From: Octopus vulgaris
Taxonomy: Eukaryota
DNA length: 64,000 nucleotides
Reading direction: 5' to 3'
Assembly: GCA_951406725.2 (NCBI GenBank)
Contig: OX597817.1
Location: 166,904,001-166,968,000 of the forward strand
Of the stretch, positions 641 through 62,600 are shown piece after piece. A program made the position numbers and the translations under genes. Within the stretch, counting starts at the first letter, position 1, and each line of letters starts with the position of its first letter. The notes below the pieces were generated by a model. It ran no database searches, was not told where the DNA came from, and worked only from the letters and a program-made list of their open reading frames with translations.

Positions 641-750
641 AACGGCCATAATAGGCCATTCACCCACTAGAAATAACAGCCAAAGCTTCAACCGCAAATA
701 AAAGTTAATTCTGTAAACCAGGAGAAAATTTTAAAAACATTTACCCTGTA

Positions 751-857
751 ATTTCTTATACGATATACCGTTTCATCTGCTGATTAATGGTAAACTAACC
801 TGATTAAATTAAATCAAGCCAATCTTCCACAGGCCCTCAGATTCCTCAGTAAGAAAT
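751..857 (-). ncRNA. Hammerhead ribozyme (family B, inverted copy)
   Basis: Reverse complement of 1311-1417. Confidence 0.85.
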
Positions 858-1310
858 AGCCCAAGTCGGAACAGATATTTTCACGAGGCATTTCCGACCT
901 TGCCAAGTTTATATCTGACCTAAAATTTTCAAATCGTCGCACTCGCGCCAAATTTATCGGCAGCAAATAAATATAAGCCGTCGATTCCATTACGGAATTA
1001 ACCAGAAAATTCATAATTAATCAATATAGGGTGGCAAAAAAAAAAATTTTGTAGAATTCTTTTGCCACCAGCGGCCTAGTAGGAAAAAATTAAATAGTCA
1101 TAGACCATTTTTAAGTTCAACATCATTTTTTTGCCACCCTATATTGATTCATTATGAATTTTCTGGTTAATTCCGTAATGGAATCGACGGCTTATATTTA
1201 TTTGCTGCCGATAAATTTGGCGCGAGTGCGACGATTTGAAAATTTTAGGTCAGATATAAACTTGGCAAGGTCGGAAATGCCTCGTGAAAATATCTGTTCC
1301 GACTTGGGCT

Positions 1311-1417
1311 ATTTCTTACTGAGGAATCTGAGGGCCTGTGGAAGATTGGCTTGATTTAATTTAATCAGGTTAGTTTACCATTAATCAGCAGATGAAACGG
1401 TATATCGTATAAGAAAT
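1311..1417 (+). ncRNA. Hammerhead ribozyme (family B)
   Basis: atttctta CTGAGGA atctg...cagat GAAA CGGTATATCG TA taagaaat; predicted cleavage after GUA (1409). Confidence 0.85.
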
Positions 1418-1642
1418 TACAGGGTAAATGTTTTTAAAATTTTCTCCTGGTTTACAGAATTAACTTTTATTTGCGGTTGAAGCTTTGGCTGTTATTTCTA
1501 GTGGGTGAATGGCCTATTATGGCCGTTCCTTGATTGTTTGATGTTGAACTTAAAAATGGTCTATGACTATTTAATTTTTTCCTACTAGGCCGCTGGTGGC
1601 AAAAGAATTCTACAAAATTTTTTTTTTGCCACCCTATATTGA

Positions 1643-1679
<37 letters not shown>

Positions 1680-21285: not shown

Positions 21286-21380
21286 CCTTGATTTTCCTGA
21301 AGAGAAATCTGCATAATATACTCCTTATTCCTTCGGAATTTGGAATATGCAGCCTTCGAAACATATGTCGAGAATAAAGG
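21286..21380 (+). ncRNA. Hammerhead ribozyme in a Penelope pLTR
   Basis: ccttgattttc CTGAAGA gaa..ctgcata...tatgcag..ttc GAAA C ATAT GTC gagaataaagg; cleavage after GUC (21369). Confidence 0.85.
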
Positions 21381-26059: not shown

Positions 26060-26590
26060 ATTATTTTTTTCCCTTCATAGACTGGCCCTTGATCGGGCGG
26101 ACCTATAGATGAAAGTCTCTCCATCCGTGTCAATTTCATATATTTTCAATGCAGTATATCTAGTACTACATTATCCAATGCAAACTTATTTATTTTTAAA
26201 TGACTAAGTGTGATTTGGGGAGATTCTGCTGCTATTTTATTTTTTTCCCTTCATAGACTGGCCCTTGATCGGGCGGACCTATAGATGAAAGTCTCTCCAT
26301 CCGTGTCAATTTCATATATTTTCAATGCAGTATATCTAGTACTACATTATCCAATGCAAACTTATTTATTTTTAAATGACTAAGTGTGATTTGGGAATTC
26401 TGCTGCTATTTTATTTTTTCCCTTCATAGACTGGCCCTTGATCGGGCGGACCTATAGATGAAAGTCTCTCCATCCGTGTCAATTTCATATATTTTCAATG
26501 CAGTATATCTAGTACTACATTATCCAATGCAAACTTATTTATTTTTAAATGACTAAGTGTGATTTGGGGAGTTTCTGTTGCTATTTCTAG
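26060..26590. repeat. Three near-identical ~175-bp tandem direct repeats
   Basis: cccttcatagactggcccttgatcgggcgg at 26071, 26247 and 26420. Confidence 0.9.
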
Positions 26591-27329: not shown

Positions 27330-28280
27330 CTTTTTACTATAGATACAAGACCCGAAATTTGGGGTGGGGAAGTTTAGTCATTTACATCGGTCCCAGTATT
27401 TAACTGGCATTTATTTCATCGACCCCAGGTAAAGGCGACCTCAGCGGTATTGAACTCAAAACGTAAAGACAGACGAAATACCTATTTGTTTATTACCCAC
27501 AAGGGGCTAAACACAGAGAGGACAAACAAGGACAGACAAACGGATTAAGTCGATTACATCGACCCCAGTGCGTAACTGGTACTTATTTAATCGACCCTGA
27601 AATGATGAAAGACAAAGTCGACCTCGGTGGAATTTTAACTCAGAACGTAGCGGCAGGCGAAATACCTATTTTTTATTACCCACAAGGGGCTAAACACAGA
27701 GAGGACAAACAAGGACAGACAAACGGATTAAGTCGATTATATCGACCCCAGTGCGTAACTGGTACTTATTTAATCGACCCCGAAAGGATGAAAGGCAAAG
27801 TCGACCTCGGCGGAATTTGAACTCACAACGTAACGGCAGGCGAAATACCTATTTCTATTTCTTTATTACCCACAAGGGGCTAAACACAGAGCGGACAAAC
27901 AAGGACAGACATAGGTATTAAGTCGATTACATCGACCCCAGTGCGTAACTGGTACTTAATTTATCGACCCCGAAAGGATGAAAGGCAAAGTCGACCTCGT
28001 CGGAATTTGAACTCAGAACGTAACGGCAGGCGAAATACCTATTTCTATTTCTTTATTACCCACAAGGGGCCAAACACAGAGCGGACAAACAAGGACAGAC
28101 ATAGGTATTAAGTCGATTACATCGACCCCAGTGCGTAACTGGTACTTAATTTATCGACCCCGAAAGGATGACAGGCAAAGTCGACCTCGGCGGAATTTGA
28201 ACTCACAACGTAACGGCAGGCGAAATACCGCTAAGCATTTTGTCCTTTATGCTAGCGATTCGACTAACACGTTGCCTTCA
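27330..28280 (-). mobile_element. Head-to-tail tandem array of SINE bodies (~180-bp units)
   Basis: About 4-5 copies of acccacaaggggctaaacacagag...gtcgacctcggcggaatttgaactc. Confidence 0.85.
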
Positions 28281-36245: not shown

Positions 36246-36805
36246 GGATCTTTTCGGTTTGAACGGCAGTTTTTAAAAATAAGTTCCACGTAACTAAACA
36301 CTTTTAAACTTCGTATACTGGTAGAATGTGTTTATACAACATCTTTTTCTCTTGGCTTTATTGAGAAAATTCTATAGTTTGTAAGATATGGATCTTTTCG
36401 GTTTGAACGGCAGTTTTTTAAAATAATTTCCACGTAACTAAACACTTTTAAACTTCGTATACTGGTAGAATGTGTTTATACAACATCTTTTTCTCTTGGC
36501 TTTATTGAGAAAATTCTATAGTTTGCAAGATACTTGTTGGTTTTTTCTTCAATTTCTGCAATTTCAACCAATCAATGATGTCTATTGACCTGAAAACATT
36601 CTGTGCCGTATGAAAACGTCCTTCGTTTAAGAAACAGATTGGGTTTATTTACATTTGTGAAGAAAAGAAGATACCCTTCCCCCCACCCCTAACCCTAACC
36701 CTAAAATAGATTGAAATGCAATAAATCGATACTAGGGTCATAATTATGGGTGACAATTTCATATGATACCGCTAGAAAAAACTGCCGTTCAAACCGAAAA
36801 GACCA
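36246..36805. mobile_element. Second MITE copy with a duplicated left end
   Basis: TSD gatgaaag at 36238-36245 and 36806-36813; left ~145 bp repeated from 36390. Confidence 0.88.
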
Positions 36806-37663
36806 GATGAAAGTTCTACATAATGGTACCCAGCCGCATAAATGGTGATATATTCGTTTAAGTTTAAATGAACCTAAGACTACATTATCCTATATATACA
36901 CGTTTCTTTCCATTTTTTAAAGACGATAAACTGTAAATTACTGAAGATATAGCTTCTATTTCTATAGGGCTGAGCGACCTGGGAGAGGCCATTTTTGGGG
37001 TAACATACAATGAAGCTTTATTTTTGAGTGATCTTGTGGCTTGCAACAAAGACACCTTTATCCCTATATTAGTCTAATGGTTTGTTACCTTTTAACTACG
37101 TAAGGTTCAGATCTTCCCTTTGATGAAGCCATTCAGATAACTTCTTTAGCCCCCATAAAATTCGTTTCAGTATCAAATTTTTACTTGATAATATTGTCTC
37201 CCTTGCGTTGTAGCATAGTGTATACTCAGTGAATTAGTGTGCATATGCATGGTGTCTTTGAGTATGTATATGTCCGTATGTATGTATGTATGTATGTATG
37301 TATGTATGTGTACCTTTGCTTGTCTTTGTGTGCCTGGTTGCATGTGTGTGTGTGTATCCGTGCGTGTGTGTGTGTGTATGTGGGTGTGTTTGTGATAGTC
37401 TTTATTCGATTGTTGAGTGACAACTAGTTATAATATAGAACAGACGATTGACTATTGAATTGAAGCAGGTTGTAGGACTGCATAAATAATTAAAAGATTT
37501 TCTATTTGTTTTAACAATAAGTGTTCCGTCAGCTGAACTGTCAACTCATTGTATTATCCTTTAGATGGTTGAGTATTCCAATGACACTTGTACACTCAAT
37601 GTAATCCTCAGGCAGAATCAGTGTGACACACTGTGCGACAGGAGCAGATTTTCAGATTATATA

Positions 37664-38262
37664 TTTCTTTACTACCCACAAGGGGCTAAACACAGAGAGG
37701 ACAAACAAGGACAGACAAACGGATTAAGTCGATTACATCGACCCCAGTGCGTAACTGGTACTTAATTTATCGACCCCGAAAGGATGAAAGGCAAAGTCGA
37801 CCTCGGCGGAATTTGAACCCAGAACATAACGGCAGACGAAATACGTATTTCTTTACTACCCACAAGGGGCTAAACACAGAGAGGACAAACAAGGACAGAC
37901 AAAAGGATTAAGTCGATTACATCGACCTCAGTGCGTAACTGGTACTTAATTTATCGACCCCGAAAGGATGAAAGGCAAAGTCGACCTCGGCGGAATTTGA
38001 ACCCAGAACATAACGGCAGACGAAATACGTATTTCTTTACTACCCACAAGGGGTTAAACACAGAGAGGATAAACAAGGACAGACAAAAGGATTAAGTCGA
38101 TTACATCAACCTCAGTGCGTAACTGGTACTTAATTTATCGACCCCGAAAGGATGACAGGCAAAGTCGACATCGGCGAAACTTGAACCCAGAACGTAACGG
38201 CAGACGAAATACAGTTACGCATCTCGCCCGGCGTGCTAACGTTTCTGCCAGCCCGCCGCCTT
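37664..38262 (-). mobile_element. Tandem trimer of a SINE body
   Basis: 3 near-identical ~184-bp units; a single head at the right end. Confidence 0.85.
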
Positions 38263-38907
38263 TATTTTCAGATTATACTTGAAGTGTCATCGTCAGTTTA
38301 CGTTTACCTTGATTCAAGCAGAAGGATTTGGTCAGTCCGCAACTTCGATAACAGGCTTTTGCATGTGATACCATGTAACGGGATCAAGCGTGAGATCTCA
38401 TGAATGCAAAGCAAAACTCTTAGCCACTTAGCCAAAACTCTTCCCATGATTATATGGACTGAACGTTTATCATTACCAAAGTGAAAATCGATTTTATCAT
38501 TTTTTTTTTTCTTTTAGACCAAATCACATTTGAATCTATATTGACATTCTTCAGTCTGTTGCGCTGAAAATACATACAAATAAATCAGGTTGAGGCAAAG
38601 CCATGTTGTTACATGATCAAATCACATTTGAATCTATATTGATATTCCTCAGTCTGTGGTGATAAATATATATTTCTTTACTACCCACAAGGGGCTAAAC
38701 ATAGAGGGGACAAACAAGGACAGACAAAGGGATTAAGTCGATGAAATCGACCAAGTGCGAAACTGGTACTTTATTTATCGACCCCGAGAGGATGAAAGGC
38801 AAAGTCGACCTCGGCAGAATTTTAACTCAGAACGTAACGACAGACGAAATACCGCTAAACATTTCGTCCGGCGCGCTAACGTTTCTGCCAGCTCGCCGCC
38901 TCCTGTG

Positions 38908-38944
<37 letters not shown>

Positions 38945-39264
38945 ATAGTAGTGGCGAGCTCTGTTATTGTTATTTGGCGGTATACCTTACAGCTGTTACT
39001 TCTAATGCTGTTGTGGTGGTATATATATATATATATATAATTAATCAATATAGGGTGGCAAAAAATTTCGTAGAATTTATTTGCCACCAGCGGCCTAGTG
39101 GGAAAAAAATTAAATAGTCATAGACCATTTATAAGTTCAACATCACAATCAAGGAATGGCCATATAGGCCATTCACCCACTAGAAATAACAGCCAAAGCT
39201 TCAACCGCAAAATAACATTAATTCCGCAAACCAGGAGAAAATTAAAAAAACATTTACCCTGTAA

Positions 39265-39369
39265 TTTCTTATACGATGCACCGTTTCATCTATTGTTTAA
39301 TGGTAAACTAACCTGATTAAATTAAATCAAGTCAATCTTCCATAGGCCGATAGATTCGTCAGTAAGAAA
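39265..39369 (-). ncRNA. Hammerhead ribozyme (family B, inverted copy)
   Basis: Reverse complement of 39800-39904. Confidence 0.85.
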
Positions 39370-39799
39370 CAGCCAAGATCCGAGCAGATATTATCACGAG
39401 GCACCTCTGCCCCTGCCTCGGCAATATCTGACCTAAAATTTTCAAATCATCGCACTCGCGCCAAATTTTATCGGCAGCAAATATAAGCTGCCGATTCCAT
39501 TACGGAATTAACCAGAAAATTCATAATTAATCAATATAGGGTGGCAAAAAATTTCGTAGAATTTATTTGCCACCAGCGGCCTAGTGGGAAAAAAATTAAA
39601 TAGTCATAGACCATTTATAAGTTCAACATCACAATCAAGGAATGGCCATAATAGGCCATTCACCCACTAGAAATAACAGCCAAAGCTTCAACCGCAAAAT
39701 AAATTTGGCGCGAGTGCGATGATTTGAAAATTTTAGGTCAGATATTGCCGAGGCAGGGGCAGAGGTGCCTCGTGATAATATCTGCTCGGATCTTGGCTG

Positions 39800-39904
39800 T
39801 TTCTTACTGACGAATCTATCGGCCTATGGAAGATTGACTTGATTTAATTTAATCAGGTTAGTTTACCATTAAACAATAGATGAAACGGTGCATCGTATAA
39901 GAAA
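39800..39904 (+). ncRNA. Hammerhead ribozyme (family B)
   Basis: tttctta CTGACGA atctat...atagat GAAA CGGTGCATCG TA taagaaa. Confidence 0.87.
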
Positions 39905-40023
39905 TTACAGGGTAAATGTTTTTTTAATTTTCTCCTGGTTTGCGGAATTAATGTTATTTTGCGGTTGAAGCTTTGGCTGTTATTTCTAGTGGGTGAATGG
40001 CCTATTATGGCCATTCCTTGATT

Positions 40024-40119
<96 letters not shown>

Positions 40120-40331
40120 TTAAATCAGTTGTTACACAATATATTATATAATACATAGCAAATAATAACAATATGTGAAAGATATATATATACATAATAA
40201 ACCACGGAGCCTCGTGGAGCACGGTGTATATATATCAGCCACAACAAATATATGGGAATCGAAATATATAAATATATATTGTGCATACATGTGTATGTAT
40301 GTATATATAAATATGTATATGTATATGTGCA

Positions 40332-40999: not shown

Positions 41000-43900
41000 C
41001 AACAACAACAACAACCTCAACAACAACAACAGGATGAACCACTCCTTGATTCATCTACAATGGCCGATTTGCTAAATGAAATCGATTGACCCCCAGTCAT
41101 CAGGGTCACACAGCAGGAAGTGCATTCCTTTCACTGCCCCAGCAGCTCAATCATCATCATTGTCAACACCATCTCCTCTGCTTACTACTACTAGTACTAC
41201 TCCCACTATATATCGACAAACATCTTTGTCTTGGAATCGACCTCCTCAATCATTACCACCGTCAACATCTCTTCTACCTACTACTACTACTACTAACTTA
41301 TCTCAAGGAATTTACCTCATCTCCCGGGGACTCGTCGGACATTTAAAGATAACCACTCACATAAAAATAGCCGCGGCCACACACACCTGCGGTTCCCTAG
41401 ACAGGAAACCACCTTTCTCGATATTTTTATAGAATGAATCTATGCTGATAGAAGAACTGAAAACATCGACATCACCCAAACTACAATTACACTACCAGCC
41501 ATTAAAAGCAATCAAAACAAATCACCAAAACAATTCCAGCCATTTCCCACTCAACATTTCTGCTTAATGCACAAGGCATCAGCCCATTCCCGGGACTCGT
41601 CGGACATTTAAAGATAACCACTCACATAAAACCACAGTCACCTTTCTTCGTCTTCACTGACTTCTTAGTGACCTCCACTTGGAAGCCGAGGTGAAAGTTA
41701 AAAGAACTGGACATGCTGATCGTGTTGGCAGAAGAAAGGTGGGACTGCCATTTATGTCCATGATTCAAAAGCCATGAACATATTTTCGAACCATCCACTC
41801 TCGCCTCAACATTTGCTGCTTAATGCCCAAGGCATCAGCCCTTCCACCAATACACAGTAGACAGACCACCCCACCCACACACCCATCCAAACCACAACAG
41901 CATAAAGTGTTTCATTCAGCAGTGTCAACCTGACAACATTTTAATGATGGGAGATTGTTTCCCATTCGGGTTGACTGGTCATAAAAGTGGGATTCTTTAT
42001 GTCCATGAACCACTCATGCCATGATATTTGTCAGAACCGAAGCATGTCATAACAACATGTATAGTATGTATGGTATGTATATGAGGAATGTAACACTGTG
42101 TTTTTCAGCAGTGTCAACCTGACAATGATGATGGGAGATTTCAACCTTCCCGGGGTTGACTGGTCTACAAACAGTCTGCCGTGAATATTCTTCAACCCCT
42201 GACAGGGAGGCAGTGGAATCGCTTCTTGACTTCATGGATGATTTCTTCTTGTCCCAACTGGTACTCGAACCAACGAGATGTAAAAAAACGTCTTAGACTT
42301 AATTTATACACAATCACATATACTATCCACAATAGATAAACCCTACTTGACCATGATCAATAATGATCTTGCACAAGTCGATTGGTCCTTCACGTACACA
42401 TACACACCCACTAACATCAAAAAGTCCTGGCAGTCACTTGTAGACACCATCACGAACATATGTGCAAGACACACCCCATTAAGATCTGCAAACAAATCTA
42501 AGTGTCGAATCCCTAGAAATAGAAAATCTCTCATAAGGAAAATTAAAAGAATCAACAAAAAGATCAACATGCTGAAATACTGTCAACAGCAACACACCAA
42601 CCTGACTGCCATCTCGTCGCTAGAGATTAAAAAACATAAACTCCAAAACAACATGATGTCTATCATCAATAGTCAGCGAAGAGCTGAAGAGGCCTGGGCC
42701 ATTGAGAAGATCAAACTCAATCCCAAAGTGTTCTTTTCATTTGCAAAAAAACACAGAGTCACTGGTTCTACTGTTGGCCCTCTGATTGATGAAAATGGTA
42801 TTCTTCAAGACAATGCCAAAACCATGGGAGAAATATTGCAGAAACAATATTGCTCTGTTTTCAGCAATCCTGATATGACTGATCTGGGCTGTATCAGTGA
42901 TGTTACTCCCCAATACACTTTATCGGACGTAACATTTGGCGCTCCTGATGTCTTAGCAGCAATAAAGGAAATGAAGCATAATTCAGCAGTAGGTCCCGAT
43001 AGGTTCCCTGCTTGTGTCTTGAAGATGTGTCAAAACCAACTTGCACTCTAGCCAATCTGTGGCGGAACTCATTGGATGCTGGATATATACCAGAAGACCT
43101 TCTATCCCAGTCTGTTGTCCCAGTTTTCAAAAAGAAACAAATCGCTTGCCGTGAATTACCGTCCAATCTCACTCACCTCTCATATCATCAAGGTATTTGA
43201 GAGGGTGCTGAGATCGCGTATGACTCACTTCCTTGAGAGTCATAATATGCTGAACCCCAACCAGCATGGATTCCGTAATGGGAGAGATTGCCTGACGCAG
43301 CTACTGCATCATTTTGATGACATTTTGAGAGCCTTGGGAGAGGGTTCCAACACTGATGTCATCTACCTTGATTTCAGCAAGGCCTTTGACAGGGTTGATC
43401 ATAAGATCCTTCTGAGAAAGCTGTCCAATATTGGTGTCACTGGAAAGCTGCTGCAATGGATCAAGTGCTTCCTCTCTAACAGAACCCAACATGTTGTAGT
43501 CGAAGGAGTCAAATCCAGCCCAGCCAAAGTCAGCAGTGGTGTCCCACAAGGCACTGTGTTGGGCCCACTTCTCTTCATCATCTACATAAATGATATTACT
43601 GACACCATCAAACACAGCAACATCAGAACCTTCGCTGATGATTCCAAGCTCCAGAAGGTCATCAATGGCGTGGATGACCGAATAAACCTTCAGTCAGACC
43701 TACTGGCTGTTGTCCAATGGGCGGAAAAGAATAACATGTTGCTAAATGAAGACAAATTCGAACTGATCCACTTTGGAAGGGAGGACGCTCTGAAACTCCC
43801 ATACTCTCTTCCTTCTGGAGAAATTCTCATGGCATCCAACAACATCAGAGACCTGGGAGTAACAGTGGACAACAACATAAGCTGGGCTACACATATAAGC

Positions 43901-44527
43901 AGCAAAGTTGACATGGCCCGCAGAATGTGTTCCTGGATTCTCAGAACCTTCCAGTCGAGAGATTCCCACGCTATTATCCTTCTCTTCTCCACTTTTGCCC
44001 GACCCCACCTTGAATACTGCTGTCCACTGTGGTCTCCCTACACAAAACAAAATATTATGAGAATTGAAGCTCCCCAAAGGTCAATCACAAAAAAGATAGA
44101 TGGCATGTCAGACCTTGACTACTGGGGTAGACTAGAGAAGCTGAAATTGTATTCACTCCAACGACGCCGTGAACGCTACATTATCTGTATGATGTGGAAA
44201 ATATTCCATCAGCACTGTCCGAATGATGTTGGCATCACCTTCAAAATGCATCCAAGGCTTGGACCACGTGCCATCCGTCCACAACAAAAATCTATCGCAT
44301 CATACGGCACAACTATTTCATATCTCTTCAACATACACCAGGACACGTCAAAAAAGAAACTATATAGTACCGGACAAACCTTCCACACCCGGATATGTCT
44401 CCGCAAACAATAACTCTCTGCTCGAATGGGCCTAAATCCTGAACTGAAAGACTTCGCCAGGTGGTGCTATTAAGTTAGACATGGCCTGGGCCAATACTGG
44501 CCAAAAACCTTTCTAAGTTATTCTAAG

Positions 44528-48134: not shown

Positions 48135-48321
48135 CTAAGTAATTAAGGGTTTAGCAACGAATTGCCTCACCACACACCGAATTTAGAAATAGCAGTCAAA
48201 GAGTTATAGCTATTCTTTCTACTAAAAGGGAGATCTCAGTAAAAACACACCACTTGAAAGGCAAACACAGACAGGTAAGAGAGAATGAAATGACGGCAAT
48301 CTATCATACAATTTTAAGTCA

Positions 48322-48412
48322 CCTACGGACGTACGTTTCGAAATTAAGTTTTTGGAAAGCATAAGAATTAGATAATCATGTCTTACCCAACTTCTTTTCT
48401 CATCAGCGTAGG
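48322..48412 (-). ncRNA. Hammerhead ribozyme (family C, inverted copy)
   Basis: Reverse complement of the copy-1 motif with minor loop-II changes. Confidence 0.87.
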
Positions 48413-48642
48413 ACACTACAATTATGAATAATTGTTACTGATAGCCATATTTCATCCCAGTAAATGACCACAGCATCTTGTCTTGGCTACACGCGGGTGG
48501 GAAGGGGTTGGTGACACAAACTTTCATTCACACTTTGAATTTGGTGATACTGGTAACGGCTTTAGCTCGCTCTGATACTGAGTTGAGATGATGCCTTCTA
48601 GTATCTCGAAATTTAATATACAATTATTCATAATTGTAGTGT

Positions 48643-48733
48643 CCTACGCTGATGAGAAAAGAAGTTGGGTAAGACATGATTATCTAATTCTTATGCTTTC
48701 CTAAAACTTAATTTCGAAACGTACGTCCGTAGG
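48643..48733 (+). ncRNA. Hammerhead ribozyme (family C, copy 1)
   Basis: cctacg CTGATGA gaaa...tttc GAAA C GTAC GTC cgtagg; cleavage after 48727. Confidence 0.9.
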
Positions 48734-49225
48734 TGACTTAAAATTGTATGATAGATTGCCGTCATTTTATTCTCTCTTACCTGTCTGTGTTTGCCTTTCA
48801 AGTCCTGTGTTTTTACTGAGATCTCTCTTTTAGTAGAAAGAATAGCTATAACTCTTTGACTGCTATTTCTAAATTCGGTGTGTGGTGAGGCAATTCGTTG
48901 CTAATACCTTAATTACTTAGTATTACTTAAACTTTCCTCGAATGAGGCTTTTACATGCCTAGATCTACTTGGTGTAATTAATGATTATTCCAAGTTAATT
49001 AATTTCACCCTATATTGTTACTGATAGCCATATTTCATCCCAGTAAATGACCACAGCATCTTGTCTTGGCTACACGCGGGTGGGAAGGGGTTGGTGACAC
49101 AAACTTTCATTCACACTTTGAATTTGGTGATACTGGTAACGGCTTTAGCTCGCTCTGATACTGAGTTGAGATGATGCCTTCTAGTATCTCGAAATTTAAT
49201 ATACAATTATTCATAATTGTAGTGT

Positions 49226-49316
49226 CCTACGCTGATGAGAAAAGAAGTTGGGTAAGACATGATTATCTAATTCTTATGCTTTCCTAAAACTTAATTTCGA
49301 AACGTACGTCCGTAGG
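49226..49316 (+). ncRNA. Hammerhead ribozyme (family C, copy 2)
   Basis: Same motif, +583 bp; cleavage after 49310. Confidence 0.9.
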
Positions 49317-49808
49317 TGACTTAAAATTGTATGATAGATTGCCGTCATTTTATTCTCTCTTACCTGTCTGTGTTTGCCTTTCAAGTGCTGTGTTTTTACT
49401 GAGATCTCTCTTTTAGTAGAAAGAATAGCTATAACTCTTTGACTGCTATTTCTAAATTCGGTGTGTGGTGAGGCAATTCGTTGCTAATACCTTAATTACT
49501 TAGTATTACTTAAACTTTCCTCGAATGAGGCTTTTACATGCCGAGATCTACTTGGTGTAATTAATGATTATTCCAAGTTAATTAATTTCACCCTATATTG
49601 TTACTGATAGCCATATTTCATCCCAGTAAATGACCACAGCATCTTGTCTTGGCTACACGCGGGTGGGAAGGGGTTGGTGACACAAACTTTCATTCACACT
49701 TTGAATTTGGTGATACTGGTAACGGCTTTAGCTCGCTCTGATACTGAGTTGAGATGATGCCTTCTAGTATCTCGAAATTTAATATACAATTATTCATAAT
49801 TGTAGTGT

Positions 49809-49899
49809 CCTACGCTGATGAGAAAAGAAGTTGGGTAAGACATGATTATCTAATTCTTATGCTTTCCTAAAACTTAATTTCGAAACGTACGTCCGTAGG
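49809..49899 (+). ncRNA. Hammerhead ribozyme (family C, copy 3)
   Basis: Same motif, +583 bp; cleavage after 49893. Confidence 0.9.
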
Positions 49900-50160
49900 T
49901 GACTTAAAATTGTATGATAGATTGCCGTCATTTCATTCTCTCTTACCTGTCTGTGTTTGCCTTTCAAGTGCTGTGTTTTTACTGAGATCTCCCTTTTAGT
50001 AGAAAGAATAGCTATAACTCTTTGACTGCTATTTCTAAATTCGGTGTGTGGTGAGGCAATTCGTTGCTAAACCCTTAATTACTTAGTATTACTTAAACTT
50101 TCCTCGAATGAGGCTTTTACATGCCGAGATCTACTTGGTGTAATTAATGATTATTCCAAA

Positions 50161-50215
<55 letters not shown>

Positions 50216-57724: not shown

Positions 57725-59626
57725 TATATGCACTTTGTATATATAAAAATTATTATATATACATATTTATATATAGATACACACACACATATATAAATTA
57801 ACCCAATAAATATCTGATTCATAATATATGTTGTCATGATTGAGTGGTCGTTGTGGCGATGATAATTCTCTCTATGAATGCAGACAAACGTAGAAAGTGA
57901 GAGTGTGTGAAAGCGCTGTGGAAGGCAGGGAGGGGGGATAACGGACGCTGTGAAACGACGTTATAAAGAGAAAGTGAATGTAAGGGAGGTAGACGCTGTG
58001 AAACGACGTTATAGATAGAAAGTGAAAGGAAGGGAGAAAAGTGAGTGAGTGATGGAGGAAGACAGATACATAAAAGAATGAGAGTGTTGGATGTTTTGTT
58101 TGTTGGACCAATGTATTAAGGTAGTATTGTTTTATTGTTTTAAAACGAAAGAGGCAATGTGTTTGTTTCAAAAATTAAAAAAATCTGTTATAGTGAATGA
58201 AATTAGAATTCACACCCAGCTTAGTTTTGTAGAAAGAGTATCACGATGTGAACTCATGAGTTGGAAGTTTGACTGAGAGAGTTTATATGGTGACACATGC
58301 CAGTCCTTTCGACACCACCTAAACAATGGAATAGTGTATAAAATGTAATTAACAACTCATTCACTTTATGAATGTCTTATGTTAGCGAAAAAACAATAAC
58401 TTGACAAAACCGTTTAATGGAGACGTAGAAGGAATCGGAAAATGAGGAATAAAGAGAATGAGTTGGATCAAATGTTTGCAAACATCTGAACCCAATGTTC
58501 TTTATGAACCATGTTCTTTTTAATGTCTTTATTTTCAAGAATGAAGAGATAATGAAGAGGTGCAAAATAAAAAATCAAGCAAAATTTCATGACTTACAAT
58601 CAGTTTTCTTTTGTCAGAGCCTCTGATAAACCACGTTCCTTGTGCGCTCATGATTGCCAAGAATGAAGAGTTTATGTGGATTTCCAACTCGAGAACAGGC
58701 TACGTACAATTGACCATGACTGAAAACCGGTTGTGACAGGTTAATGCCTACAATGTCCAGTGATTGTCCCTGTGACTTGTTGATTGTCATCGCGAAGCAT
58801 AGTTTTATCGGAAATTGAAAGCGTTTAAACTGAATAGGAACATCAGAGGGTGAAATACTCATTTTATGTATCATTTTGATTGTTCCTACAAATGGTCCAC
58901 TCAAAATTTCAGCAGTTATAACATGGCATTGAATCCTCCTAATAACCATTCGGGTTCCATTGCATATTTCAGGCGTTTCCATATTTCTGAGCACTATGAT
59001 TGGGGCACCAACTTTCAAACACAAATGATGAGGTGGAAGTCCCGGAGGTGTTAGCTTGTTGAGTAGCTCGGGTGGATATTTGACTGCATCATTCTCATCT
59101 TTATTTGTATCGATGGACATGAAAGAAACTATCTCACCAGGATTCATATCAAGTACTTGTTTATTTGTAGCATGAGCTGTTGTATTATGAGGCGATAGAA
59201 TAGCTCTTGCCCTTAGCCAATCGAGATCCTGGAAGTTGGTTTCGACGTCAGGTAAAACGGCTCTTATAAGTTCTTCTACATTTGGAACGAAATTCCCAAA
59301 AGGCAACCGAATATGCTCATCATCAACGAAAGGCAAAACTCCATCACCAAGATCTAATAGGTGTTTTGCGAAAGCCTCAGACTCCACATCACCATGTAGG
59401 TGGACTCTCATGTTTGTTTGAAGATGGCGACTGATAACACTGTGCCACACAAAAGAATGCTTTATACATGCATTAACCTCATCAGCTCTAGTGCCTGCTC
59501 GGACAACAGGAAGAGTTTGTCGAAAATCTCCTGCCATGAGAAACGTAGCTCCACCCATTATTTTTGTATTGTGACGCAAATCTTGGAGAGTTCTGTCAAG
59601 AGCCTCAAACATGGCCTTATTACTCA
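57596..59626 (-). mobile_element. 3' part of host Helitron (Helitron 2): PIF1 helicase C-terminus, 3' region and terminus
   Basis: Helicase 58614-59626 (GDFRQTLPV, NMR, CNGTR, FAMTINKSQGQS, HGQLYVACSRV); end acccgc-gcgtaga-gcgggt hairpin + caccttcagCTAG at 57596. Confidence 0.88.
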
Positions 59627-62600
59627 CTAGCAGCATAGCCCGGCGTTGCCCGGGTATGTAAGAGCCCCTAGTAGGCAACGACTAATCCCAATGTAGTCCT
59701 TTCCCTCCAGGGAACGAAGGTGCATGTGGACGTTGCAATGTCTTGTCTTCACTGGAATACTTCTGTATATACGATGTTCCTAGCTGTCCGTTTGGGCGAA
59801 AACATGAAAACATCATTGCGCCTCCCAACGCGTGAACAGCCCACGTAGAGTTGACCGTGGGCGAAGCACTGTTCGCCCAAATGTAACCCAGCGACTTGTA
59901 GCGTTTGGCCTTGGGATTTATTGATGGACATTGCGAAGCAGAGTTTAACAGGAAACTGAGAACGCCTGAAGTGGATTGGTAGGTCAGCGCCCGACGGTTG
60001 AAGGTGCATCCGTGGAATGAAGACGTCCTCTCCCTTCCCACAACCGGTAAGTATTGTGGCCGTTATTAAATGTGGTGCCAAATGTTTCACAACCAAACGT
60101 GTGCCGTTGCACTGTTTAGGTGGAACCAAATTCCTGATGAGCATAATGGGCGCACCGACTTTTAACTTCAGGATGTGTGGTGGCAGGCCTGGCGGTTCAA
60201 GTGAATTCAGGAATTCAACAGGATAATCGGCAAGCTGGGCGGGGTCTGCTGTCCTATCTATAGATTTGTAGACGTGGACATCACCAGGAATAGCTTCAAG
60301 TAGCTGGATATTGATGGAGTTGACGGTTGTATTTTTGGGTGCGAGAATAGCTCTGCCTGCCAGCCATTTTAGGTCGCGTAAATTGTTTTGTAGGTCGTGG
60401 AAGACAGCGTCCCGGAGGCTAGCAGGGGTATCGACAATGGTGCAAAGTGAGTCCAATTGAACGTAGCCATCCGCATCAGACAGCATCCTATTTTCACCGA
60501 GCGATAAGAGGTCCCTGGAGAATGCAGCGGATCCGCTGTCACCAATTAACTGCGCGCGCATGTTAGTTTGGAGGTGCAAGGGCCGCACATGTGCCCAAAG
60601 AGCTGACGACTTAAGGCACGCGCGCACGGCATCGGCACGGGTTCCTTTTGGAATAACAGGTAGAGTCTGCCTGAAGTCTCCTGAAAGAAGTAAAGTTAAT
60701 CCTCCCATGGGGGCCGTAGAGTCTCTGATGTCTTGCAGGACCTGTCCAGTGCCTCAAGGGCGCCTTTGTGTGCCATAGTGCACTCGTCCCATACGATGAG
60801 TTTGCATCTGCGCAGAATGTCGGCCTGTTCTGAGTTCTTGGCGATGTTGCAGATAGGTGACTCGGACTTTGCCAGATCGAGCGGGAGTCTGAAGGCAGAG
60901 TGGGCGGTTCTGCCACCCGGAAGCAACGTGGCCGCGATACCAGAGGAAGCTACAGCCAGGGCAATGTCCGTGTTGCGTCTGACCTCTGCCAGAATTAGTT
61001 TAGTGACGAAGGTTTTGCCAGTGCCGCCGGGTGCATCAAGGAAGAAAATCCCCCCACGTTGCTGTCTGACAGAGTCTACGATGGTGTTGTAGGCTATGCG
61101 CTGGTCTGGAATCAGCCGTGGTTCATTATCTTGGACGTACTGGTGCAGTTCCTCAATGCAGTAGGAAGTTTCGCGTAACAATTCAGCAGACATAACATTG
61201 GCGTGTTCACGTGTGGGTGGTGGAAGGCCGTACTCTGTTAAAGCAGACCCACCCATATCGATGACAGCGTCTTCGAGTTGAATGAGCGCAAAATTGTAAA
61301 TGAAGTTGGTGAACGTGATCTCGGCGGAAGGGCAGTGTTGCTGAGCCGTACGTAAGAAGTCGTGCGACATGTCATCCCTGTATTTCATCCAGAGACTTAG
61401 TGGATCACTAAGCTGACATTTTTGAAGAAGGATTGCGAAAAGATGTCGTAGGGCCGAATGCGTTTGCAGTAAAGCACCCTCTGCCATCGTGGCGTCCCAC
61501 TGGGAGTCATCCTCTAGAAGGCCAAGTCTCATACATGCTTCCCTGAAGGTGTCGCACAGAACCCCATTGACGGTACGTATATTGGCGAAACCTGTTGGAC
61601 CAGTGACCTCATGTAGAAGGAGACGGAGGTAGAAGCATTCTTGCTGGTTTGGCGGGATGTTGTAAACTCGACCCAGGCAGGAGTCAAACTTGACGCCTGG
61701 GAAGCTTTCGACGTTTTTGCCGGATTTCCGTCGGACCCAGGTGTTTTTAGACCACACGAAGTACGATGGGACCTGTGGGTACAAAAGCGTTCGAGCGAAG
61801 TCATCACGTTGGCATAATTTGAAGAAACCAGTCAACGTTGTGTCTTTAGGGCTGGTGGCTATGTGCACAGCACTTTGCTCTGTGAAGTAAATCCGCTGTC
61901 CATTTTCCAAGTGTACAGCAAGCTGCACCACAGCCGGGTGTCTCTGATGGAGCGGGAAGCCGTAAATGCGCCAAAACGCTTCGTTGCTGCTGAGGTACCG
62001 GCCAGCCAAGTAGTTGGACATTTCGTCGCGACTGGTGGTCCTCTGGATGCTGAACATGGCAGCATCGCTGCCTTTGTTGATATATTTGCAGACATATTGT
62101 ATTGACCTGATGGAGCTGCAGAACTCAACGTTGACGTGGGCTTTGAATATCTTCGACAGGAGAGGACAGTAGGGGACAATGTAGCTGTTGTCCACTTGAT
62201 GTCGCCCAACCGTAATCGTGCGGCCTCCATTGGCTGGACTCCTTCGTTTGTACAGCGGATACCCATCGCCGCCTGTTTGAGTCTCCAAAGTGAACCGTTT
62301 AGGGAATCCCTTTGAGCAGGCTAATCCGTTTTTGTAGCATGGTGTGTTGGCGTAATTTGGTCCACAGGGCCCGTGTACCATGGTAGTGCGGACAATTTCG
62401 TAGAGTCCGGGGTCCTCATCGGAGTCAGGAATCTCGGCGGAAATGAATTTGTCAATGTCATTAGTCTCGATTTTATGAGTGAGCCAAATTAAGATGTGAG
62501 CATGTGGCAAGCCCCTCTTTTGCCACTCGACCGAAAACATGTGGCACCTGACATGCCCGAAAATCTGACCCTTAACTATCAAATCCTTCATTTTGCCCAA

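Follow-up and report, generated by a model that had tools for sequence, protein, structure and literature searches.

Non-LTR retrozymes of metazoans are non-coding tandem elements in which each unit carries one type I hammerhead, and they are described with a GC content below 50%, many dispersed arrays, a self-paired predicted circle and Penelope-like elements (PLEs) in the same genome (PMC7229834; 10.64898/2026.07.22.740005). It has been argued that retrozymes originate from PLEs (10.64898/2026.07.22.740005). EN+ PLEs are described as partial tandems with an inverted arm, a one-ended tail and a microsatellite target, in which a hammerhead lies ~100-200 nt upstream of two internal reverse transcription (RT) start points (PMC8557442, PMC11167929, PMC4209133). 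Their typical pattern is an inverted, 5′-truncated copy that bears its tail at one end (PMC8557442); for the anole PLE, the inverted copy and the tail have been attributed to internal priming at two sites, and hammerhead mutants still inserted in vitro (PMC11167929). A third relevant system is the pDo500 satellite of Dolichopoda crickets, a ~500-bp repeat with a conserved hammerhead core, for which cleavage was assayed, changes in stems I and II were compared across species, compensatory stem changes were taken as constraint, and single and double hammerhead folds were discussed (PMC2837043).

Here we analyse an insertion at positions 39037-40028 of the window, by which we mean the whole stretch of 64,000 nucleotides of Octopus vulgaris DNA. 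It resembles the metazoan non-LTR retrozymes in all of the features listed for them above, and its unit spacing of 483-494 bp across copies, in arrays that reach 9.4 units, exceeds the 170-400 nt given in PMC7229834 and falls within the 51-972 bp given in 10.64898/2026.07.22.740005. Unlike the retrozymes described in those sources, this family has a 58-nt extension of stem II and a helix III of four pairs, and we found no account of back-to-back arms with two fixed ends in those two sources. The layout is that of EN+ PLEs, including a hammerhead upstream of two putative internal start points, but the unit has no ORF, its tail measures 105 nt compared with 30-40 nt, and it has no similarity to the PLE copies at 50 loci. 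The 5′ ends of its arms cluster near the predicted cut, whereas at the cut site of the anole PLE, as far as its description goes, no RNA ends were found.

Published work already covers retrozymes and their link to PLEs, loops that are palindromic, and a hammerhead satellite with compensatory changes (PMC2837043). What distinguishes the present unit from pDo500 is a change in a loop pair that can form only in a dimer, together with a probable intermediate lineage within one genome; the capture of this non-palindromic, probably intermediate lineage is our addition. Judged by titles and the opening lines of abstracts, none of the papers surveyed treats a cephalopod retrozyme or a TGCA-TACA-TATA series, and the supplements of PMC7229834 and 10.64898/2026.07.22.740005 may list such families.

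The insertion and its hammerhead

By its sequence, the locus is a single young insertion of a ~490-bp non-coding tandem element with a type I hammerhead, that is, a non-LTR retrozyme. Its right end, previously set at 40027, was corrected to 40028. Two arms with 99.7% identity lie back to back, and (TA)n target sequence is found beyond each of them (39020-39039 on the left and 40027-40120 on the right). We number the unit from the first base after the predicted cut. The long arm (39037-39702, minus strand) comprises 1.37 units of the 486-bp monomer, running from unit position 57 to 235, and has its end in (TA)n at the distal fixed point; the short inverted arm (39701-40028, plus strand) comprises 0.67 unit, running from unit position 290 to 130, and likewise meets (TA)n at its end, here the proximal fixed point. 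The 105-nt tail (39037-39141, minus strand; unit positions 131-235) is present on one arm end only and, by analogy with the internal priming described in PMC11167929, is likely to be the stretch that separates two reverse-transcription start sites. The locus contains no ORF of at least 150 aa. A tandem repeat of the 184-190 bp kind adjoins the insertion on the left (38670-38900), and further tandem repeats in the window have periods of 176 bp (26061-26586), 190 bp (27427-28229), 184 bp (37662-38212) and 144 bp (36246-36532).

We searched 2.8 Gb of the genome on 227 contigs for copies and obtained 1,557 matches to one hammerhead motif, 1,834 matches to another and 2,871 matches, with up to three mismatches, to a non-hammerhead motif of the unit. 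Dispersed copies are thus numerous, and an LTR structure is absent, as in non-LTR retrozymes. The family is young: the two subfamilies compared in a preliminary description of this DNA differ at 44 of 486 sites. The second of these is represented in the window by an insertion with a TATA loop at 641-1650, with arms at 641-1125 (minus strand) and 1126-1650 (plus strand) and hammerheads at 751-857 (minus strand) and 1311-1417 (plus strand).

Sequence inspection, a descriptor scan and predicted folds place the type I hammerhead of the short arm at 39799-39905 on the plus strand. Stem I pairs 39799-39806 with 39898-39905 and forms an open helix I; it is followed by the core CUGACGA (39807-39813), in which N7 is position 39811, equivalent to unit position 400. 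The five pairs of stem II join 39814-39818 with 39877-39881, GAAA (39882-39885) forms the 3′ side of the core, helix III pairs 39885-39888 with 39893-39896 around the loop UGCA (39889-39892), and the motif predicts a cut after GUA at 39897. Accordingly, CUGANGA, GAAA and UH (H not G) are arranged around three helices with helix I open, as is typical of type I. An identical second hammerhead lies in the long arm (39264-39370, minus strand), where the core starts at 39362 and the predicted cut follows 39272. The descriptor scan recovered complete hammerheads at 39807-39897 (plus strand) and 39362-39272 (minus strand), as well as at 1319-1409 (plus strand) and 849-759 (minus strand) in the TATA insertion.

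Stem II continues into a 58-nt extension (39819-39876) that is predicted to fold as a long hairpin; across 68 distinct copies, 98.8% of the cells of its 18 pairs are paired, with zero double changes. The base of helix II in hammerheads is usually G10.1-C11.1, but this is not absolute. In this family the usual pair is absent, and the first helix II pair is A-U in 64 of the 68 distinct copies and unpaired in the remaining 4. The Rfam hammerhead models gave no match at the gathering score, nor at E values up to 10, which is likely explained by the long stem II. In model folds, the hammerhead lies ~2 kcal/mol above the minimum free energy, and the predicted circle of the unit is self-paired with z values of -3 to -6. 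From the conserved catalytic core of the copies we infer cleavage, that is, the ribozyme probably works.

The window contains further hammerheads. At 48135-50166 we observed a hammerhead repeat with a 583-bp unit and helix III ACGUACGU, whose back-to-back arms end at two different points in (TA)n. The 12-mer CACCCTATATTG is common to the 583-bp and 486-bp units, near the distal end, and was rejected as a signal of relatedness (E=0.12). A short inverted repeat at 155-575 surrounds a hammerhead-like motif with a core near 347 and helix III ACCGCGGU, which was found by eye and missed by the descriptor scans. A single hammerhead of a further family is located at 21297-21369, ~210 nt before a (TA)n run, with helix III ACAUAUGU; its relative at locus L172 has the non-palindromic ACACAUGU. 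Finally, the minus strand carries two PIF1-like helicase frames (58617-60753), which are probably pieces of a Helitron.

Arm ends and a possible Penelope-like partner

Arm ends were surveyed at 94 loci with an arm, 63 of which are clean two-arm loci. Among these 63, the arms end near unit positions 130 and 235 at 55 loci, at 235 twice at one locus and with one other end at six loci; the remaining locus ran off the fetched DNA. Another 22 loci contributed 15 with two arms, 12 of which have the 130 and 235 ends and 3 one other end. In total, 67 of 78 two-arm loci end at unit positions 130 and 235, and 148 of 175 arms reach (TA)n. The family therefore combines a partial tandem, an inverted 5′-truncated arm, a one-ended tail and a microsatellite target in the manner of PLE insertions.

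The 5′ arm ends are enriched in unit positions 1-30, just past the predicted cut (24 of 151, compared with 11.4 expected). On contig C1, 18 of 72 5′ ends fall there compared with 5.6 expected; the 30 nt that follow hold 5 (P=0.003). Among arms that had already run past the cut once, there is no excess (7 compared with 5.1). Selection by the non-hammerhead motif alone gave 11 places, of which two have variant hammerheads and one is a single arm starting at position 7. The eight others are hammerhead-free two-arm insertions, and in 7 of them both arms start within positions 1-30 (P~4e-9 under a uniform null, with one arm read in two pieces). That short insertions begin just past the predicted cut is likely a footprint of cleavage in vivo, and the pattern as a whole suggests two kinds of template, namely linear RNA that has been cut and RNA that is circular or uncut. 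A private change is present in all units in 3 of 14 arrays, which lends thin support to circular templates.

The same ends could instead arise if RT stalls at helix I or joins in the A/T tract at unit positions 19-33, without reference to a cut RNA end. Indeed, of the 24 ends within the first 30 positions, 13 fall at 19-28, in the A/T tract, and the hairpin region at 91-120 has a smaller excess of its own (16 compared with 9.3). However, the other 11 ends are at 1-16, both arms stop there together, and later passes over the same sequence show no excess, and we regard stalling or joining as the less likely source of the ends, though one to be taken seriously.

The genome contains a young intact PLE in (TA)n that encodes 781 aa with RT and, at the C terminus, a GIY-YIG domain, and its tail is found on one arm only in both of the two loci for which both ends were scored. 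This PLE has no sequence similarity to the 486-bp unit, and no canonical hammerhead was found in it by the descriptor scan. Likewise, no pLTR sequence shared with the unit was found in 50 PLE loci (GIY-YIG search, with 150 of 6,136 candidates scored). The intact PLE is present at L212:1244-6460 and 15 similar loci; its 781-aa RT-GIY-YIG frame overlaps an upstream 479-aa frame, and the motifs TGACG(T) and ATTGG are repeated in its pLTR region. An RT frame in the window at 43052-44410 (RVT_1, E 3e-31) was rejected as a partner; it looks LINE-like and gave no GIY-YIG match.

Overall, the best explanation, to which we assign a probability of roughly 75%, is a retrozyme insertion whose RNA likely cuts itself and was likely copied into (TA)n in trans by a Penelope-like RT-GIY-YIG protein, with a palindromic loop III that is favourable and dispensable. 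The arrays would be transcribed. The hammerhead would then cut after GUA or GUC, and the PLE enzyme would break both strands of the TA repeat and prime two cDNAs, the first at unit position 130 and the second at 235. Short arms that stop close to the cut would come from linear cut RNA, and long arrays from RNA that is circular or an uncut multimer. Selection during RNA propagation would act strongly on the catalytic core and weakly on the helix ends. Contigs of 4 runs guessed to be RNA cover the locus and a LINE control alike, and their coverage carries no information on transcription or RNA ends.

Paired changes and constraint on the ribozyme

The preliminary description had compared the hammerhead of the TATA insertion at 1311-1417 with that of the locus, and all of the bases cited for both copies were confirmed, except that the bounds of the latter are 39799-39905 rather than 39800-39904. 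The copies differ at 12 of 107 positions, namely N7, the fifth stem II pair, two loop III bases and the outermost base of stem I, with the remaining six in the stem II extension. As described, the core differs at N7 alone (1323, G compared with C), the fifth stem II pair is swapped (1330 G/A with 1389 C/T), and the inner bases of loop III are swapped with the palindrome kept (1402-1403, AT/GC). The change in the outer stem I base (1311, A/G) turns an A-U pair into G.U.

We redistributed the same 12 substitutions over like bases in 200,000 permutation trials. At least two double Watson-Crick changes occurred in 0.22% of the trials, zero broken pairs in 5.0% and an unchanged core in 20%, and the joint outcome of two double changes without a broken pair has P~0.002. 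The paired changes therefore exceed chance, whereas the unchanged core between two copies does not. To this extent the claim of compensatory changes holds, but both changes mark subfamilies, and each is a single event on its subfamily branch. In addition, all four of the cited pair substitutions are transitions, and a double transition at a Watson-Crick pair always yields a Watson-Crick pair.

A larger alignment had been proposed as the check on covariation, and it gave no significant signal. Among the 68 distinct copies (those of 107 nt among 72 extracted), with double changes counted pair by pair, 3 of 37 pairs have a double change, and 267 of 500 shuffles reach that count. Pairing itself is well kept, with 98.0% of predicted-pair cells paired compared with 31-43% for slid controls. 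Some propagating lineages have a broken helix II: A.C replaces the first pair in 4 of 90 loci, and in 3 of 90 the cited fifth pair is broken to A.A.

Across the family, CUGANGA is kept in 1,826 of the 1,834 copies matched by 23 flanking bases, and N7 takes all four bases (37 A, 37 T, 14 G and 13 C in 101 copies). It is the most changeable site, changing 7 times on a tree of 58 loci and 10 times on a tree of 90 loci. On the latter tree, 269 non-hammerhead sites average 0.73 changes, with 7 at most, and the 11 core sites have one change, in one copy. Conservation of the six 5′ core sites alone is not significant on the tree (P=0.17), and the value for all 11 core sites (P=0.025) is inflated by ascertainment, the five 3′ core sites being fixed by the search patterns. 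H17 is A, or C in one lineage, both of which are allowed bases. Between 62 and 70% of the non-hammerhead sites are likewise invariant. A per-copy control for core conservation (142 expected mutants) was set aside; it was dominated by one subfamily change and misregistered copies. The evidence is consistent and, at modest power, supports selection on the ribozyme as judged from its copies; the modest power and the scarcity of covariation follow from the youth of the family. Selection on the ribozyme, which had been argued from two copies, is thus supported on the better basis of the family-wide intact core, free N7 and A or C at H17, and the two-copy comparison is the weaker ground for it.

N7 (unit position 400, window 39811) is far more changeable than apparently neutral sites (10 changes compared with the mean of 0.73). 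Relaxed constraint alone does not explain this excess, and a reverse-transcription hot spot, RNA modification or recombination is possible. In a small sublineage (L149, L156), the outer stem I pair goes from A-U through G.U to G-C, a possible second stepwise path. At locus L136 (G000:C1:173127607-173129714), successive units of the array switch back and forth between two variants of helix III, as if from a dimeric template.

Loop III lineages and dimer pairing

Among the 1,557 motif matches, loop III is TATA in 807, TACA in 23 and TGTA in 1, and a subfamily that combines the G-C stem II pair with the TGCA loop has 43 copies. The 23 TACA copies are located at 5 loci. Four of these are whole arrays on three contigs with TACA in every unit; they share a second change and, at 5 diagnostic sites where TATA has a derived state, are ancestral. 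The remaining locus is a lone reverted unit within a TATA array, and one TATA copy sits on the TACA background. The grouping of TATA with TACA has 99% ultrafast bootstrap on the 58-locus tree, a support value that includes the loop site itself. Once the stem II A-U/G-C swap had taken place, loop III most likely changed from TGCA through TACA to TATA, a path that is traced by one shared derived site and one linking copy; the two pairs cited in the preliminary description are, to judge from these lineages, subfamily markers that arose at different times.

TACA could also be a side branch or a recombinant and not the ancestor of TATA. Only one derived site is shared, G-to-A transitions recur easily, and a mutation that struck a TACA copy once it had inserted could account for the linking copy. 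Against this, the ancestral states at 5 sites in the TACA loci mean that these are not reversions, and the series is nested without conflict, with the bootstrap support given above. We therefore consider a side branch a possibility of the lesser kind, and continue with TACA as the probable intermediate.

The predicted helix III duplexes have energies of -17.5 (UGCA), -13.6 (UAUA), -10.6 (UGUA) and -7.1 kcal/mol (UACA), and the monomer hairpin of -0.1 kcal/mol. It was thus the weakest predicted duplex that propagated, and the G.U-tolerant TGTA has one copy. In the modelled UACA dimer, a 12-nt helix III retains five pairs on each side around two A.C mismatches. Helix III has four pairs, one of them G.U, and a tetraloop, whereas obligate dimers have 1-2 bp and a palindromic loop, so that a monomer fold is possible. 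No third palindromic loop lineage was found: with the first loop base fixed, a pyrimidine occupies loop position 2 in 6 matches compared with 3 in the control, and 2 of the 6 are copies of the family (TTCA). Among the other hammerhead groups in the fetched DNA, which are crude and hold few records each, helix III is self-complementary in 5 of 7 if G.U counts as a pair, and palindromy looks favoured across families, as in print (PMC4209133).

A stricter form of dimer action holds that two units must pair through a palindromic loop III for cleavage to occur and that selection restored the palindrome. Pairing between the two inner loop bases is impossible inside a single hairpin, which makes their joint change compensatory in a dimer only; the monomer helix III is predicted to be marginal (pair probability 0.02-0.08); TATA far outnumbers TACA (807 to 23); self-complementarity recurs in the 5 of 7 crude groups; and hammerheads with a short helix III are described as acting as dimers (PMC4209133, PMC7229834). 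However, TACA fills four whole arrays on three contigs, which means that TACA RNA was copied at least four times, and the route ran through the weakest duplex, UACA, rather than the G.U route through UGUA. The TATA expansion also carries five other substitutions and may reflect drift of source loci, and invertebrate retrozyme hammerheads with a sturdier helix III are reported to cleave as monomers (PMC7229834). An absolute need for the dimer is therefore improbable. The palindrome looks helpful, and not essential, for spread, and the earlier proposal of selection on dimer pairing is retained only in this weaker form, given the four separate insertions of non-palindromic TACA and the four pairs of helix III.

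Least probable, and in our judgement quite unlikely, is that the hammerhead is an inherited passenger from a PLE pLTR that spread through uncut multimeric transcripts, its core and double transitions reflecting youth and chance: the 62-70% of invariant non-hammerhead sites, the propagation of broken stem II pairs, the failure of 8 of 9 tested Xenopus retrozyme dimers to cleave (10.64898/2026.07.22.740005) and the dispensability of cleavage for PLE insertion in vitro (PMC11167929) fit such a relic, but N7 alone varies within an otherwise fixed core, H17 changed solely to another allowed base, the permutation gave P~0.002, and the 5′ arm ends are in excess and co-occur beside the cut.

On the preferred reading of a self-cutting retrozyme copied by a PLE protein, a bolder and more speculative account, which we hold only tentatively, is that one genome keeps the whole compensatory walk UGCA to UACA to UAUA of an intermolecular pair through its weakest duplex, that the later rise from tens to about 800 copies was driven by the restored palindrome, and that the pile-up of arm starts records hammerhead cleavage making the template end for a PLE enzyme that primes twice on one RNA. 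The arm ends bear on how the tandem-inverted insertions of PLEs form and on the role of hammerhead cleavage in the PLE cycle, for which none was reported in vitro (PMC11167929). The class of element is known and the finding is therefore modest; its value lies in a test set of natural alleles with known copy numbers, comprising the TGCA, TACA and TATA loops, four N7 bases, GUA and GUC sites and broken stem II pairs, with which one may ask whether dimer pairing and cleavage rate affect spread.
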